From a virus (lineage: Duplodnaviria; Heunggongvirae; Uroviricota; Caudoviricetes): a DNA stretch of 38,213 nt. The notes beneath the pieces were generated by a model. That model made no database searches, was not told where the DNA came from, and was given only the letters and a program-made list of their open reading frames with translations. This document shows positions 3,563 to 38,213 of the stretch, piece by piece. Every line of letters begins with the position of its first letter. Positions within the stretch are counted from its first letter, which is position 1. Position numbers and translations under genes: made by a program. The DNA lies in IMG/VR virus record IMGVR_UViG_2526164668_000029, positions 1-38,213 of that record; one strand, 5' to 3'.

Positions 3563-6500
3563 GCGTCGTATCCCCCCTGATCGCTGTAGTTACTCCTGGC
3601 TTTTGCCTTCAGCCTGCGTTCACGTTCATCAAGCTGGCGTGCCACCTCCCGCGCAATATCCTGCGCACTTTGTCCTGGCTGCGTCTGAATGATGATCTGC
3701 GTCGGTGCCTCAATCCGTTGAACGAGCGGCACAGTGGCTGCGCGACTCACAATTGCTTCTCCACCTTTCGCGGGAAGTGCCAAAGGGTGCAACGGTGGAA
3801 GCTCTGCTGGCGCGGCAGCAACGCCCATCATTCCGGCAACAACGGCAGCCAGTGCAGCTGTATTTCTCCGGCTGGTCACATTTGCCGGGCCGTTAACAAT
3901 TTCCGGCCCGTTTTCACCGACGATGCCAAACTGCCCGCGCGGGATATACCCGCCGCTGTCATACATCCCCGCAAAGCCATATCCCCATGATGGAAAACCA
4001 CCCGATGGCATCATCACTTTACCGTCTGCATTCACCGTCGCAGGTTGCTGACGCGTCACGCTTTCCGGCAGTTTTGCCTTTGCGGCCTCTTTACTGACAA
4101 TGCCGAGCTTCTCCAGCAACCAGGAAACGCCGGATTTCAGGGAGTCCAGCGGATGCATGACCATATTCAGCCCTTCCGCCAGTGCCTCCCCGAATCGCCG
4201 CCCCATTGCCGCTGCGCTCTGCAGTTCGGCAGAGGTCGACTTAACGGGCGTCAGCAGATCATTAAACCAGCCCCACAGCGCCTGCACTTTGTCGCCAATC
4301 CACTGGAACACGGGCTTAAGCGGTTCGAACGCTGCACTGATGGGACCTGCCGCCGCTTTGAATCCTTCCACCACGCCACCGAGAAATGCGGTGATGGGTT
4401 GCCAGTATTTCCAGACAACCAGCGCCACGCCCGCCAGTGCAGTAACCACAAGACCTATCGGACTGAGCAGAGCACCTAACAGACCAGATATGGCATACAG
4501 GGCAACGCGCAGCATCGCCAGTGGACCAGATGCCAGTACTCGCAGCACCGTGCCTGCGGCGGCCAGTCCACCGCGCAGTACCGCCAGAGGATTCATAAAC
4601 ATCACAGCAACAGCACGTAAACCGGATAATCCAGACAGCAAAAGTGCAACCGGCGCACCTGCTATAGTTTTCAGGACATTTCCCGTCAGTGATGCCGTGC
4701 GGCGCAAAGACGACAACGGCGCAGTAAGTAAACCTGCGGCGTTGCCCGATGAAGCAAGCCCGCGTCGCAGCAGTGCCAGTGGTGCGCCAGCCAGCCAGGA
4801 CAACGCGCTGCTGGTTCGAGTTACTGCTGCCGTAACGGAAGATAACGTTTTGATACCCAACACAGAGAATCCCAGACGGATCACTGCCAGCGGCCCCAGC
4901 ACTGCAGCCAGCGCCACCGCTAAGGTGCCGAGGCCGACGGTAACCGCAGCCACAACAGCCGATGCTTTCATCAGTGTGCCTGTCAGTTCCGGGTTAGCTT
5001 CCACCCAGCGACGCAACGCCCCCGTGACGCTTTTCACCGTGTACAGAATATCCATCAGCGGCTGGCGCAGCGTTTCGCCCAGGCTGCTGAAGGTGTTCTG
5101 CGCTCCGGTTTTGACCAGCAACCACTGCGCAGAAAGTGAATCCTTGTTAATGTCGGATTCTTTCTGCATGGAGCCGAGCGCATCATTGCCCGCTGTCAGT
5201 TTTAACTGACGCTGCAGTTCCGGCAGGTTGTTTGCCAGTTTCGCCGCGTCATCGCCAAACTCTTTACCAAACAACATAGTCATGGCAGACAGGCGCTTGT
5301 CCTGCGGCAGCGCGTTTACCTTCTCCAGCACGCGCTGGATGGTTCCCATCGCATCCTTCGTCATCTGCTTTTCAATCACTTCAGGATTGAGTTTCAGCAG
5401 ATTCATCCCTTCAAAGAAACTCTTGCTTTGCATGGTGGCAATGGACAATTCACGCACCATCGCGTTTGCTGCACTGGCTGCAACCTCTGGCGCAGCGCCC
5501 AGTGTCAGGAAGGTGGAACCCAGCGCCGCCGCTTTACGATAATCCAGACGGTCAGCCACACCGCCCAGACGTTGCATCACATCAATGATGTCTGCCCCTT
5601 TCGACATGGCGTTATCATCCAGATAGTTCAGCGCATCACCGAGCTGTTCAATATTGCGGGTGGGGATTTTGTAGAGCTGGGCGATTTTCCCCAGACTTTC
5701 TGACAGTTCATCCGCTGGCAGCTCAAAGGCTGTTGCCGCCTTTGCTGCCGTACTGGCGAAGGCCAGCAGGTCACGTTTCTGATCTTCCCAGCTGTCGTCA
5801 GGGTTTGCGACGTTCATGCGCGCACCACCTTCAACCAGTGCAGCGAAGTCCACCGCACCGTTTTCCATCGGCAACTGTTCGCTGGCAGCCTTGATGGCAT
5901 CCTGCATTTCATAAAAACGTGCAGTGCGGTTGCCATTATCGTCACGCAGACCATTGACCTGCTTTGCCACACCTTTCATGGCATCTTCCATGCTGGTATA
6001 GCTTTTTACTGCCGCCATCACTGGCGCACCCATTGCCAGCCCTGCAGCCGTGGTGGTGGCTCCGGCACCTGCAATACGATCACGCACCTCCAGCGAACGG
6101 GTATAACTGGCACGCGCTGCATTCATCCTGCGCTGAGCTTCCCCCAGTCGCTTCAGCCGCGCCTCCTGTTTCGAAAGTTCCTGGTTATAACGTGATGTTT
6201 CACGGGCTAAACGGGCAGTTGCTCCCGCATCGTCTTTCGCAGAAATTCCCGCCCGGTACAGTTCAGCACGCACAAGCGCCGTCTGCTGCTGCAGCTTTTT
6301 CTGGCGTTCTTCCAGGCGCTGAACAGCCAGCCGTTGACGGCCCAGAGCAACAACCTGACGTTGCGAAGGCGGCCCCATCGCTCCCAGTTCCTGACTGAGC
6401 AAATTTGCACGCTGGCGGGCATAGTTCAGCCTGTCGCCTAATTTCTGATTTTCTGCCTGCAGCTTTCGGAAGCTGTCCAGACTGCTCCCGGCCTGATCAA

Positions 6501-32329: not shown

Positions 32330-33349
32330 ATGACCATCAGAAAACAGCCGAACGGAAAATGGTTGTGTGAGTGCTATCCCAATGGACGCAATGGTAAGCG
32401 CGTGCGTAAGCAATTTGCTACCAAAGGCGAAGCTATTGCATTTGAAAGCTTCACAATGGAAGAAGTGAACAAAAAACCATGGCTGGGGGAAAAGGAAGAT
32501 CGGCGACATTTATCAGAATTAATTGAGCTGTGGTATTCCCTGTATGGTCAAACACTCACAGACCCCAAGCGCCTCATGGCGAAACTTAGTATTATCTGTA
32601 ATGGTCTAGGCGATCCCATCGCTTCAGAACTGACAGCCGGTGACTTTACGAAATACCGCGAAGCACGGTTAAAAGGTGAAGTACGAAATGAAGATGGCAC
32701 GCTTATGTCGCCCGTTAAGCCCCGCACGGTAAACCTTGAACAGCGCAATCTATCATCTGTTTTTGGTACACTGAAAAAGCTGGGCCACTGGTCAGCCCCC
32801 AACCCGCTTGCCGGGCTGCCAACATTTAAAATTGCTGAGAGTGAATTGGCGTTCCTGACCCCGGAAGAAATTAAACGTCTGCTGGATGCCTGTGCTGATT
32901 CTCAAAACTCTAGTCTGCTGACGGTTGCAAAAATATGTCTGGCCACCGGCGCGAGATGGAGTGAAGCCGAAAACCTGCAGGGCCATCAATTATCAAAATA
33001 CCGGATCACCTACACCAAAACTAAAGGCAAGAAAAACCGAACCGTACCGATATCTCAGGAGCTATATGAAGAACTCCCCAAAAACAGGGGGAAACTATTC
33101 ACGCCCTGCAGAAAAGCTTTTGAGCGCGCAGTAAAACGAGCCGGTATAGACCTGCCTGAAGGCCAGTGCACACACGTGTTGCGCCATACATTCGCCAGTC
33201 ACTTCATGATGAATGGCGGAAACATATTGGTACTACGCGATATTCTTGGTCACTCTGATATAAAAATGACGATGGTTTATGCTCATTTTTCGCCAGATCA
33301 TTTAGAAGATGCTGTAACAAAAAATCCACTGGCTATGTTGGGATACTGA
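32330..33349 (+). CDS. int: tyrosine integrase (P2/186 type)
   Basis: 339 aa; catalytic region ...HVLRHTFAS...LGHSDIKMTMVYAHF with the R-H-R-Y residues. Confidence 0.9.
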   Translation: MTIRKQPNGKWLCECYPNGRNGKRVRKQFATKGEAIAFESFTMEEVNKKPWLGEKEDRRHLSELIELWYSLYGQTLTDPKRLMAKLSIICNGLGDPIASELTAGDFTKYREARLKGEVRNEDGTLMSPVKPRTVNLEQRNLSSVFGTLKKLGHWSAPNPLAGLPTFKIAESELAFLTPEEIKRLLDACADSQNSSLLTVAKICLATGARWSEAENLQGHQLSKYRITYTKTKGKKNRTVPISQELYEELPKNRGKLFTPCRKAFERAVKRAGIDLPEGQCTHVLRHTFASHFMMNGGNILVLRDILGHSDIKMTMVYAHFSPDHLEDAVTKNPLAMLGY

Positions 33350-33351
33350 TA

Positions 33352-34383
33352 ATGGAAAAAAGCATTAGCACATTTATGTACCTATCCGTTTTATTAGGTT
33401 GTATATTCTTATTTATAAAATATCGACTTTATGTTCTCGATCATAGAAGCCTGTTCCAACAACCCTTGTTCTGGGCTGCAATAGGCCTACCTTTATTCAC
33501 CAGCCTTTACTTTGGTTCTTTTGTCTGGATAGATAAAATACACTCTTTTAGTCTTACAAGTCACGGTTATGAGAGATTTTTAGATATCTCGAAATTACCA
33601 TTACTCATCCTTGCATCTGCAGTACCTTTAGTTTCAATAGTAAACAACCTACACAGAACCAAACAAACAGAAAAACAGATCTCAGAGGCAGAAAGGAAAA
33701 ACAGGGTAGATTTATATTACAACCACATGAAATTTCATCTTGATTTATATAAAAAAATCGAAGGAAAAAGAATAGGCAGCTACTACCCGGTTCAGGAAGC
33801 TCAAGCTGAAGCAATCTACCAACATTTTATAAAACATCCACAAGAACTATATAGAAAAGCATACCCACAATCTACGCCTGATGATTCTCAACAATTAGAT
33901 ATTAATGAGCAATTTGTTATTGATTTACACAAATGTTGGGTAGAAATCAACGCAAGACTCAAGCAATTATCCGAGAGTGAAAATCAAATACATCCTACAG
34001 AGGAACTTTGCACAACAAAGATGAGAATATTTGTAGGAGTTATGATTATTTATGAAAAAACTTGTAAACTGTTGTGTTTAGGTGGATTTCATTATAAAAA
34101 GTCATTTGTAATAAATGATAGTTATAATAAATACCAAGTTTATTCACCATTTTATGATTTTGGCACTCTGTACGAATCACTGCAATCCTTAGAAGAGATA
34201 ACCTACGCCTTCTTGGATACTTGCAGAAATGAAGTGGTAAACTTGTACTTCCCTATAGAAGATAAAATTTTGATATATGGTGAAGGGATTCTAGAGAATT
34301 GGTTCAAGTATTCTCAGTTCTTGATCACTATAGCTTATCAACCCGCCAAGATGTCTCGCTTACCCCAGCTGAGACGCGATTGA
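33352..34383 (+). CDS. hypothetical 3-TM membrane cargo protein between int and the attachment repeat
   Basis: 343 aa, very AT-rich; three N-terminal hydrophobic helices then a soluble domain; ATG 2 nt after the int stop. Confidence 0.7.
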   Translation: MEKSISTFMYLSVLLGCIFLFIKYRLYVLDHRSLFQQPLFWAAIGLPLFTSLYFGSFVWIDKIHSFSLTSHGYERFLDISKLPLLILASAVPLVSIVNNLHRTKQTEKQISEAERKNRVDLYYNHMKFHLDLYKKIEGKRIGSYYPVQEAQAEAIYQHFIKHPQELYRKAYPQSTPDDSQQLDINEQFVIDLHKCWVEINARLKQLSESENQIHPTEELCTTKMRIFVGVMIIYEKTCKLLCLGGFHYKKSFVINDSYNKYQVYSPFYDFGTLYESLQSLEEITYAFLDTCRNEVVNLYFPIEDKILIYGEGILENWFKYSQFLITIAYQPAKMSRLPQLRRD

Positions 34384-34498
34384 TGATGGCGACATTTTGG
34401 CGGCAGAGCTTTAAAAACAGATAAAACTGTCAAACACCACATAACACTAAAGTATTGTTTTTAAACATAAATCATTATTTTTTCTGTAGTAAAAATGG

Positions 34499-34544
34499 TA
34501 TGTAGGAATTTCGGACGCGGGTTCAACTCCCGCCAGCTCCACCA
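34499..34544. repeat. prophage attachment-site direct repeat (distal copy)
   Basis: Exact 46-bp copy of 1015-1060. Confidence 0.85.
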
Positions 34545-34709
34545 CTTTTTAGTTGTTTGAAGTTCAATGAAGTCTACTAAGCCCACACAGCACAAGCTCT
34601 GCGGGCTTTTTTACGTCTATTGTCGTCCAGTGAGAATTGCTGAGAACTACGAGTTATGGCACCCTGAATGGGACCCACTAAGAAGGGTCCAAAAACCGAG
34701 GGTCCCAAA

Positions 34710-35939
34710 ATGGCAAAAATCGCTAAGAAGCTCACTGACACTGAAATCAAAAGCACCAAGCCAGCCGATAAAGAAATCAACTTGTTTGACGGTGATGGTC
34801 TGATTCTACGAATCGCTCCTTTGGCGAAAGGAGGCAAGAAAAATTGGTATTTCAGGTATGCAGTACCAGTGAGCAAGAAAAGAACCAAAATGAGCCTTGG
34901 GACATATCCTCACCTTACCCTTGCAAGAGCCAGAGCCTTACGTGATGAATATCTCTCCTTTCTGGCAAATGGTGTTGATCCCCAAATCCATAACAACGAT
35001 AAGGCGAAGGCATTAAAGAGTGCTACTGAGCACACTCTCTAAGCCGTAGCGCGGAAATGGTTAGATGAGAAGGTAAAGACATCAGGTATCTCACAAGACC
35101 ATGCAGCAGACATCTGGCGCAGCTTAGAGAGAAATGTCTTTCCCGGTCTGGGTAATGTCCCTATCAATGAGATCCGACCTAAGCTCTTAAAACAACACCT
35201 TGATCCTATTGAGCAACGAGGCGTATTGGAAACTCTACGCCGTATCATTTCACGTCTGAATGAAATCTTCCGGTGGGCAGCTACTGAAGAACTTATTGAG
35301 TTCAACCCGGCTGACAACCTTGGTCAAAGATTCAGTAAACCAAAAAAGCAAAATATGCCTGCCCTTCCCCCAAGCGAATTGCCAAGGTTTATGGAATCTT
35401 TGACGAATGCGTCAATCCGGTTGGAAACACGTATGCTAATTGAATGGCAATTGTTGACATGGGTTCGTCCGGGTGAAGCCGTTCGCGCAAGGTGGTCTGA
35501 TATTGATACAACCAACAGCATTTGGAACATTCCTGCTGATTTCATGAAAATGAAAAAGCTTCACAAAGTTCCTTTGAGTAAAGAAGCTTTGCGCATCCTT
35601 GAATTAATGAAATCAATAAGTGGGCATAGAGAATGGGTTTTCCCCAGCATAAAAGCGCCTCTTAATCATATGCATGAACAAACAGCCAACGCAGCTATCA
35701 TCCGAATGGGGTTCGGAGGCGAGCTTGTAGCTCACGGTATGCGTTCTATTGCACGAACAGCGGCAGAGGAGTCTGGTAAATTCAGAGCTGAAGTTCTTGA
35801 GGCAGCGCTTGCCCACTCGAAAAAAGATGAAATTATCGCAGCATACAATCGTGCAGAATATCTGATAGAGCGACAGAGTTTGATGCAATGGTGGAGTGAT
35901 TACGTTCAAGCTCAAAGATCAAATGCTCTGGTAGCCTAA
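34710..35939 (+). pseudogene. P4/CP4-57-type tyrosine integrase interrupted by an in-frame TAA
   Basis: N-terminal part (to 35042) and catalytic part (35226-35939, HGMRS...AYNRAEY) are in the same frame, separated only by TAA at 35040-35042; the read-through translation is continuous and IntA-like. Confidence 0.8.
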
Positions 35940-35977
35940 GTATCAGAATAGCTAATATAATCCTGAAGGTAAAGAAA

Positions 35978-36166
35978 ATGGAAACCCTATTCAAAGTTTT
36001 TGAAAAATTTAGTTCCAGACCACTTTTTTTTATTTTTTTCGGACTCTCACTTTGTGAATTTTTTCAGAAACAATCTGTTCTGATGAATCCATCAGCAGAT
36101 AACATCGCGAAATTATTCGCAGCCATGATATTAGTTGTTTTTTTACTTGGGGATTTGAATGGCTAA
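35978..36166 (+). CDS. hypothetical small hydrophobic protein
   Basis: 62-aa ORF with a GAAGGT Shine-Dalgarno-like sequence upstream and two hydrophobic stretches. Confidence 0.3.
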   Translation: METLFKVFEKFSSRPLFFIFFGLSLCEFFQKQSVLMNPSADNIAKLFAAMILVVFLLGDLNG

Positions 36167-36464
36167 TCTTCAAGTTCAATGTAAACCTTGAACCTCATGA
36201 TCAAGGCGATATTGGACCAACAATTGGAACGGCTACTTTAGCTGTATACTTAGTTTATGCCTTTCACTTTCTCAGTGAAAATCCTGAAGCATTAAATTTA
36301 AAGTTATTAACTAACTCTGGCTTTATATACAGCACAACTCTATTATTATTCTCATTAGAATGCATGAAGCTTAGAAGACTTAAACAAAAATAAACAACAT
36401 CATTGTGATGATAAATATAAAATAGGCATGGCGAAAAAAAATCACCACGCCTAAAATATAATAA

Positions 36465-38213
36465 TTATGGTAGCATCATTGATACATAATCCACACCAAT
36501 CCTTGAGCTATACTGAGACGCTATAGCCTGATATCTTTCTGCATAACCAGTTCTCAGTTGAGATTTAAGTTTGAGTCGGACAGGAACATTTTGCACGTTG
36601 CCATCCATATTACTTAAAAACACGGCAGAAATAATATTTTTTTCTTCGCCATCAACTGTTGTTCCATGATTCAACACCACCATATAATCAACAACAGGAA
36701 GCGTTTTATCCCCTTCGAAAATAGAGAGATATTTTCTTTGATTTTTATGCATTACATATATATATTTCGAATGTTCAGCAAATGGCAATGCTTTACTCTG
36801 ACTGGCGTTAAAAAGCTCCAGAACTTTAATGAGCCTGTGCGGACTTAATCTTACATGGTGAGGGTCGTTACCCTGAGTAGGAACCAAATCACATGCCGCA
36901 GATACACATAAATACCATTTGTTCGACTCTGTATCAAAGAAAATAGTGCCAGTAGAAATATGACCATCTTCAAAATTCTTTGAAGACAAATTCATATTTA
37001 AAGCATGATACATTTCGTGATAAGTATCATTATTTGATGGCAGATCCATTTTTGAAGAGCAATATTGGAGCAATGCAGCAACTCCGCTGTTAGCGTATTC
37101 ATTTGAATAGCTATCAAAAACACTTTTGATAAATTCATCCAGCGTATTATTATTTTTAAGTCTTTGATAAAGCTCTTCTGATAAATTACCAAATACAAAG
37201 TCAATATTTCTACATCTAATATCAGGCGAGTCTGATTTTAATATCTCATTTAACCACGCAGCTTGACCGTAATGATCGTTAGCCAAATGATTTACAAAAG
37301 ATAAAGCCTCAGCTTCGATTGCATTCTGAATTTCAGATTTTATTAACTGATAATAAGATGGTTTCCATTCAATGAGAGAATCATTGAGAGTTTGCCAAAT
37401 CCTATCTCCATCGTTTTCATGATCATCTTGAACCTTATGAAATAGGGAGACAAAGATATTACCACATTGAATCCATTTTACTCCGCTTTCATCACCCCGA
37501 ATGACATTGCCAGATGTGTTGCTAGAAATAATTGCATTTCTAGACACAGCATATTCTGCAATCATTTTTGCAATGAAGTTTTTATCCTTTTGATCCTCCA
37601 ACACAGCATCATCATGTATTAATCTTTTAATTCTTCTACAAGGCTTACTGTCTTTAATATAGGCTATTGTTTCATCTCTTGTGAGAGCTTTATTACCATT
37701 ATCATTTAAGTTCGGTAATACAACGTCTTCCCAATAACTTTGGACATCTTCATTATCGTAGTCAATGATCAAGCTGTTGATATCCAGAGCACCTTTGAGA
37801 GTCGATGATATCTGCATCCAAACCGTTTCTAAATTCTCTCTAGTATATATTACAATCATATTTAAATGATCGGAGTCTTTCAAATCTTGTAATAGTTTAA
37901 GTGTTTTATCAGGTGCATTATTATCAAGATGATAATCTACAATAATAAGATCTGATTTTCTAATCCGATCCACATCGAAATTAACAGAACCATTGTCAAC
38001 ATCACAAATCATATTTTTAGATTGAAAAAAGCTCTCAAGAGTAGCGGCTCGTTTAGATGAGTCAATTTTGTTGTAGTCTAAATCAACTTCGTTATTCAAC
38101 GCCCTGATTGATTCAGAATACGTCAGAAAATCGTCATCAATCATGACAACGGAACGAATTGCATTTTCGCAGAAAGTTTTCTGGACAAGAGAATTATAAT
38201 TTGCCACTGTCAT
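36465..38213 (-). CDS. hypothetical 582-aa protein with receiver-like (REC-like) N-terminal domain
   Basis: AT-rich ORF; N-terminus VVMIDDDF...DLIIVDYHL...NMIVIYT matches the acidic-pocket, phospho-Asp and Thr positions of a CheY-like receiver fold; remainder unassigned. Start codon sits at the window edge. Confidence 0.7.
   Translation of the reverse strand: MTVANYNSLVQKTFCENAIRSVVMIDDDFLTYSESIRALNNEVDLDYNKIDSSKRAATLESFFQSKNMICDVDNGSVNFDVDRIRKSDLIIVDYHLDNNAPDKTLKLLQDLKDSDHLNMIVIYTRENLETVWMQISSTLKGALDINSLIIDYDNEDVQSYWEDVVLPNLNDNGNKALTRDETIAYIKDSKPCRRIKRLIHDDAVLEDQKDKNFIAKMIAEYAVSRNAIISSNTSGNVIRGDESGVKWIQCGNIFVSLFHKVQDDHENDGDRIWQTLNDSLIEWKPSYYQLIKSEIQNAIEAEALSFVNHLANDHYGQAAWLNEILKSDSPDIRCRNIDFVFGNLSEELYQRLKNNNTLDEFIKSVFDSYSNEYANSGVAALLQYCSSKMDLPSNNDTYHEMYHALNMNLSSKNFEDGHISTGTIFFDTESNKWYLCVSAACDLVPTQGNDPHHVRLSPHRLIKVLELFNASQSKALPFAEHSKYIYVMHKNQRKYLSIFEGDKTLPVVDYMVVLNHGTTVDGEEKNIISAVFLSNMDGNVQNVPVRLKLKSQLRTGYAERYQAIASQYSSRIGVDYVSMMLP

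Follow-up and report, generated by a model that had tools for sequence, protein, structure and literature searches.

Organization of the ssrA Locus

The DNA analysed here, hereafter the window, is the whole 38,213-nucleotide stretch of the IMG/VR record IMGVR_UViG_2526164668_000029, which opens with smpB (1–483) and the tmRNA gene ssrA (698–1060, + strand; recognized by ARAGORN, with the tag peptide ANDENYALAA). These are followed by a P2-family prophage of about 33.4 kb (1061–34499), which lies in the 3' end of ssrA between perfect 45-bp direct repeats. The left copy of the repeat is formed by the last 45 nt of ssrA itself (1016–1060), and the right copy (34500–34544, + strand), 100% identical to the left, is a displaced ssrA 3' end. 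The prophage carries its own P2-type integrase gene (32330–33349, + strand; Pfam Int_N and Phage_integrase), and 86–91% of it is covered at 97% identity by records of P2-family phages, such as Escherichia phage 500465-1. The insertion keeps a perfect CGCCAGCTCCACCA end, as is also listed for Fels-2 and SopE-phi in the compilation cited here (PMC10107115).

The sequence from 34545 onwards is what directly follows ssrA in E. coli OkiPb01675, and it belongs to an older remnant that has been displaced 33.5 kb downstream. The segment 34500–34544 has two roles, as attR for the P2-family prophage and as the border of the remnant on its left (attL) side. An Rfam partial match to tmRNA extends over 34368–34544, with homology to ssrA essentially confined to the 45 nt. 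The same junction between prophage and remnant, with an intact integrase gene downstream, is found in WP3-S18-ESBL-09 and other genomes. The locus as a whole is thus a tandem array of ssrA, a newer prophage, the displaced ssrA 3' end and an older P4-type element. Tandem arrays of elements at the tmRNA gene were described under the title "Traffic at the tmRNA gene" (Williams 2003, as cited in PMC10107115), and as far as that citation conveys, the present layout is the same; the combination of elements is strain-specific and nothing here is new in kind.

A hairpin followed by a T-run (34579–34616, + strand; stem 34594–34608, then TTTTT) lies just beyond the displaced ssrA end, and an analogous GC hairpin and T-run follows ssrA in K-12. 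The hairpin in the window, which is supplied by the remnant, is likely to represent the original ssrA terminator. An IsrM-like Rfam match to 34535–34612 (+ strand) falls far below threshold (53 bits, where the gathering score is 376), and probably reflects only the conserved terminator-like sequence at ssrA-linked islands. In strain C7, the left border of the remnant is an ssrA 3' copy with one mismatch (CCCGCTAGCTCCACCA), whereas the copy in the window is perfect; the histories of the two hybrid sites differ, because different prophages have inserted at ssrA.

The Integrase Gene and Its Internal Stop Codon

The first gene of the remnant is an integrase pseudogene whose whole frame of 409 codons occupies 34710–35939 (+ strand), with a TAA codon inside the frame. 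It begins 165 bp past the displaced ssrA end, a placement at the ssrA 3' end like that of CP4-57. The start ATG at 34710 is also the start chosen by PGAP in relatives, and the regular stop codon lies at 35937–35939. The premature TAA (35040–35042) is codon 111 counted from this ATG. The 5' fragment (34710–35042) contains codons 1–110, which encode the arm-type DNA-binding domain, together with the premature stop, and the remaining frame (35043–35939; codons 112–409 and the stop) encodes the core-binding and catalytic domains. The sequence-only reading had proposed that two integrase halves share one reading frame, and this is borne out both by the translation of 34668–35942, which is a continuous integrase-like protein with a lone stop after ...SATEHTL, and by the list of open reading frames, in which 34668–35042 and 35226–35939 are in the same frame.

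The read-through protein has the full Pfam architecture of a P4-type integrase, namely Arm-DNA-bind_3 (residues 8–95, E 2e-22), Phage_int_M (residues 112–204, E 4e-23) and Phage_integrase (residues 219–383, E 2e-19). It also passes the NCBIfam model PRK09692, with 440.6 bits against a cut-off of 434. The putative catalytic residues, assigned by homology, are R253 (in the motif VRPGE), K286 (HKVPLS), H342 and R345 (HGMRS), H369 (LAHS) and Y379 (AYNR), and these motifs line up with those of phage P4 Int and K-12 IntA. All six residues are encoded 3' of the TAA. With its domains, its catalytic residues and its full-length similarity to P4 Int, and with an open reading frame that is interrupted, the gene is a pseudogene member of the P4-type integrase family, and the family proposed for it from the sequence alone is upheld to that extent.

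The intact comparator is a 409-aa protein, WP_001341819.1, found for example in NZ_CP026085.1 (labelled "DH5alpha" in RefSeq, although the allele is non-K-12); hundreds of E. coli genomes have this intact allele. Over the 1,441 bp from 34560 to 36000, the sole difference between the window and the intact allele is T in place of C at 35040, which agrees with the earlier proposal that the TAA is the only lesion in the gene. The codon in intact relatives is CAA, and the ancestral codon 111 was thus Gln (CAA), converted to TAA by a C to T transition. Such a change would end translation after the arm-binding domain and before the core-binding and catalytic domains. Since the single TAA precedes every catalytic residue, the enzyme is disabled, and no functional recombinase can be made from the TAA allele.

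One might ask whether the split gene nevertheless functions, either through read-through or suppression of the TAA, or through separate arm-binding and re-initiated catalytic fragments. The N-terminal fragment of 110 aa makes up an entire arm-type DNA-binding domain, and PGAP calls an open reading frame of 194–214 aa, named "tyrosine-type recombinase/integrase", 3' of the stop. On the other hand, the allele is rare and is accompanied by other decay, as described below, and reading the sequence by eye revealed neither a recoding signal near the TAA nor a clear Shine-Dalgarno sequence ahead of the internal ATG at 35355. Recoding of TAA is not known in E. coli, and in lambda-family integrases a catalytic domain deprived of the arm-binding and core-binding domains is not expected to recombine att sites. 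We consider a functional split gene extremely improbable.

Relationship to K-12 IntA and Phage P4 Int

In a BLASTP comparison with phage P4 Int (NP_042035.1), the read-through protein shows 34% identity over 416 columns at full length (E 2e-82), and the two proteins have in common the arm-binding, core-binding and catalytic domains as well as the R..K..HxxR..H..Y motifs. Phage P4 targets leuX and has an intact, active integrase with a cognate excisionase, Vis. The element described here differs from it in that its integrase frame is broken at codon 111 and in that it is located at ssrA, not leuX.

IntA (SlpA) of the cryptic prophage CP4-57 in E. coli K-12 is likewise P4-type, and its gene, too, directly follows ssrA and has the same orientation. 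The global alignment with IntA of K-12 MG1655 (b2622) gives an amino acid identity of only 47% (196/419), however, and the cargo of the remnant consists of a 138-aa open reading frame, a Response_reg_2 gene and a HEF_HK gene in place of yfjH, alpA and yfjI. The gene was therefore rejected as an orthologue of the CP4-57 integrase, and K-12 IntA, at this level of identity, was dropped as a reference sequence. The label "P4/IntA-type" given to the gene earlier holds as regards the P4-type family, but not in the sense of orthology to K-12 IntA or CP4-57. CP4-57 is an element of about 22 kb which carries alpA and a degenerate attR (psaA) and which excises, whereas the element here is a 5.5-kb remnant with other cargo, in which alpA and attR were not found.

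The earlier statement that K-12 IntA has Leu where the window has the stop is correct for the aligned column, but the parent codon was Gln (CAA), and the K-12 protein is only 47% identical. The column of codon 111 contains Leu in K-12 IntA, Glu in P4 Int and Gln in the intact allele; the position is variable. A separate observation concerns the genome NZ_CP026085.1 (our locus L001), a 4.83-Mb sequence labelled E. coli DH5alpha, whose ssrA gene is followed by the non-K-12 remnant in the place that CP4-57 takes in K-12; at this locus it does not look K-12-derived, and its strain label may be wrong.

Distribution and Origin of the TAA Allele

A megablast search with 34560–36000 matched 561 complete E. 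coli genomes at an identity of at least 99%. Of the 581 complete E. coli genomes carrying the stretch, three contain the exact 61-mer with the TAA at its centre, namely C7 and C3 (both from cow) and OkiPb01675 (bovine faeces, Japan), and for all three PGAP labels the identical sequence "internal stop". Across the 3,669 bp from 34545 to 38213, the window matches C7 at 100% identity, and a lone 1-bp indel separates it from OkiPb01675. What precedes the remnant is different in each case: in OkiPb01675 the integrase gene directly follows ssrA, with no prophage in between; in C7 and C3 a lambdoid prophage with DarT/NADAR (DarTG) lies upstream of the remnant; and the P2-family prophage of the window is shared with none of the three.

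These contexts bear on whether sequencing or assembly could have introduced the TAA into a gene that is in fact intact. A single-base difference is what such an error might look like, but three further complete assemblies, obtained from two sources (C7 with C3, and OkiPb01675), show the identical base, and because their ssrA contexts differ from that of the window, an error is very unlikely. A substitution, moreover, is not the error type typical of long reads. The TAA is accordingly a genuine, rare and inherited allele.

As for its origin, the chromosomal backbone beyond the remnant differs between C7 and OkiPb01675 by one mismatch in 1,932 bp, whereas for strain 1639/77 the count in the same stretch is 45 mismatches in 1,784 bp, and two other strains with the intact allele are about 99% identical across the 8.6-kb locus. 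The near identity of the C7 and OkiPb01675 backbones past the remnant fits a single origin of the allele, most likely in a small and mostly bovine-associated lineage. The dead allele, standing as it does behind three different occupancies of ssrA, is a possible lineage marker.

Content and Right Border of the Remnant

The "island" to which the integrase gene belongs is a relic, about 5.5 kb long, of a P4-type integrative island. Its gene order is int, the 138-aa open reading frame, the gene for a 582-aa Response_reg_2 protein and the gene for a 572-aa HEF_HK/HATPase_c protein. The Response_reg_2 gene (PF19192; 36465–38213, - strand), identified by Pfam and by the annotation of relatives, has its start codon exactly at 38213, where the window ends. 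The right end of the remnant lies beyond this point, and the findings on it rest on relatives, including C7. In relatives, the HEF_HK/HATPase_c partner (PF19191) lies just past the point corresponding to the window end (4119–5837 in our locus L005). This pair, which some 500 E. coli genomes have conserved, was described by Bellieny-Rabelo et al. (2021, PMC8011034) as a two-component-like, paraMORC-related module with links to restriction-modification systems. The pair has no PADLOC model, and PADLOC returned zero matches on the cargo of the remnant.

In OkiPb01675, WP3-S18-ESBL-09 and the O103 strain RM8385, the remnant is followed by an IS3 element, by ygaQ without its N-terminus and then by glaH-lhgO-gabDTP, and the junction of remnant and IS3 is common to 484 genomes. 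In C7 and 1639/77 the gene order is the same, and the truncated ygaQ is reached without a full IS3. The chromosomal backbone picks up again at a point 1,164 bp within the K-12 ygaQ gene, and since it does so inside that gene, the right border of the remnant, as seen in the relatives, is a deletion junction rather than an att site. This ygaQ junction was present in every relative inspected, whether the integrase was intact or broken. A deletion mediated by IS3 is a possible cause. The IS3 copy of OkiPb01675 shows no 3-bp target duplication, its flanks being gcg and gaa, but in 1639/77 the same ygaQ junction contains a 15-bp filler and lacks IS3; the junction itself stands either way.

The relic itself is already known. 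GenBank entry AJ304858.2, from E. coli O111:H- strain 1639/77, describes a "remnant integrative element" at ssrA that is the same DNA with the same gene order and position, 99.9% identical over 5,091 bp to the copy in OkiPb01675, and annotated as intA, two hypothetical genes, a "histidin kinase-like protein" and b2657 as part of ygaQ. The entry covers CP-1639 together with its integration site (Creuzburg et al. 2005, Microbiology 151:941, as cited in PMC8065619). It differs from the window in that the integrase gene of 1639/77 is truncated by IS629, whereas that of the window is interrupted by a nonsense codon. As the RefSeq label for identical sequences was likewise in place, both the relic and the internal stop were known beforehand.

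Further Decay of the Remnant

The integrase is not the only gene of the remnant to have decayed. The 138-aa open reading frame (35978–36393, + strand; WP_000448925.1 in relatives), which encodes a hypothetical, membrane-like protein, is frameshifted in the window after about codon 55 by the shortening of a T8 run to T7 (at about 36131–36137), so that its frame now ends at 36166. The T7 run is also present in C7 (and C3), and PGAP calls no 138-aa gene in C7; the change could be real decay or a homopolymer sequencing error. C7 and C3 have in addition a 1.47-kb deletion, through which the HEF_HK gene has lost its 5' end and IS3 the greater part of its length. In other strains, the same integrase gene has been broken independently by insertion sequences, by IS1203 in E2855, by IS100 in 120899 and by IS629 in 1639/77.

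Attachment Sites and the Consequence of the Stop Codon

Recombination by tyrosine integrases of the lambda and P4 type requires both att partners, and excision usually requires a directionality factor as well. The left partner is present in the window (34500–34544). A right partner was not found in C7 or OkiPb01675: among the direct-repeat families of the relatives, none contains the ssrA end, and the terminal 23-mer of ssrA (up to 3 mismatches) and its 15-mer (up to 2 mismatches) match ssrA alone before the backbone resumes. Gapped local alignment of the 45-nt att sequence with the remnant in OkiPb01675, in C7 and in the window gave scores of 9–12, within the noise of shuffled sequences (mean 10.9, maximum 14). 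The degenerate attR of K-12 CP4-57, used as a positive control, scored 15, barely above the noise maximum, and the power of this test is modest, since an attR of the P4 type may be short and may have suffered damage. Among the four genes of the remnant, there was no AlpA/Vis/Xis-type gene (no match to an HTH or excisionase family), and hence no directionality factor was found.

The idea that a single nonsense codon had locked an otherwise excision-competent island in place has to be weighed against these results. The TAA abolishes the element's only integrase, and a precedent exists in CP4-57, whose excision is real, depends on AlpA-induced IntA and leaves a one-base deletion in ssrA that inactivates tmRNA (PMC10107115). 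The integrase of the remnant, however, is only 47% identical to IntA, and its cargo is unrelated to that of CP4-57. More importantly, relatives with an intact integrase hold the same 5.5-kb remnant with the same ygaQ junction, and in them, too, neither an attR nor an alpA/xis-type gene was found. An immobilizing effect of the stop is thus improbable, and the earlier interpretation is corrected on this point.

What we favour instead, with a probability of roughly 0.88, is an ordinary pseudogene in a known relic, that is, an island that was already immobile when the stop arose as a step of further neutral decay. The far attachment site was very probably lost before the stop, to judge from the shared ygaQ junction. 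With no attR and no directionality factor even where int is intact, we infer that the remnant would have been unable to excise before the mutation, and with the remnant already immobile, the stop would be a neutral loss and not a lock. In the window, a P2-family prophage has integrated in the ssrA 3' end of an E. coli chromosome, leaving the older relic downstream of its attR, and given three ssrA occupancies behind one TAA allele (P2-family here, lambdoid DarTG in C7 and C3, none in OkiPb01675), the later integrations would have used the phages' own integrases. The ssrA gene is accordingly still an active integration site for new phages, even though the resident element is dead.

A different view of the stop arises from the state of the gene in other strains. 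In a spread sample of full-length matches at an identity of at least 99%, the integrase frame is intact in about 22 of 23, which could mean that the gene is still useful; at a divergence of 0.2% or less, neutrality predicts the same mostly intact pattern. It is conceivable, yet in our estimation quite improbable, that the integrase has been kept intact in most of about 560 carriers through co-option, and that the TAA in bovine isolates represents the loss of a host-relevant function. A co-opted integrase might, for example, affect how other elements come and go at the ssrA hotspot, or it might work on hybrid att sites within tandem arrays. Were this so, the TAA allele would mark the loss of such a function and not neutral decay. 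Under the favoured reading of a neutral pseudogene, the outcome of the analysis is a correct annotation, in which the integrase is a pseudogene and the relic containing it at the ssrA hotspot is one already known, and its importance is small.

Accessory Genes of the P2-Family Prophage

Several genes of the prophage deserve mention in their own right. Just inside its left end, a stretch with a GC content of 0.43 contains two small open reading frames (1184–1666 and 1705–2136, both + strand), the first of which weakly matches PDC-S48, a PADLOC candidate (E 4e-7); for the second, no matches were found. At the opposite end, between the P2-type integrase gene and the prophage attR, lies a 343-aa open reading frame (33352–34383, + strand) with a GC content of 0.38 and a hydrophobic N-terminus, whose 3' end overlaps the Rfam partial tmRNA match by 16 nt. 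Searches of Pfam, PADLOC and NCBIfam gave zero matches to it, and it may be an uncharacterised accessory gene of the prophage.

A low-GC (0.36) cargo slot of the prophage holds a gene for a 469-aa homologue of the anti-phage protein PD-T7-1 (23915–25324, - strand; PADLOC E 1e-196), which is adjoined by a DinI-like gene (25646–25951, - strand). Because the closely related prophage of WP3-S18-ESBL-09 carries the retron Ec67 reverse transcriptase in the same slot, this slot looks like a variable defence hotspot.
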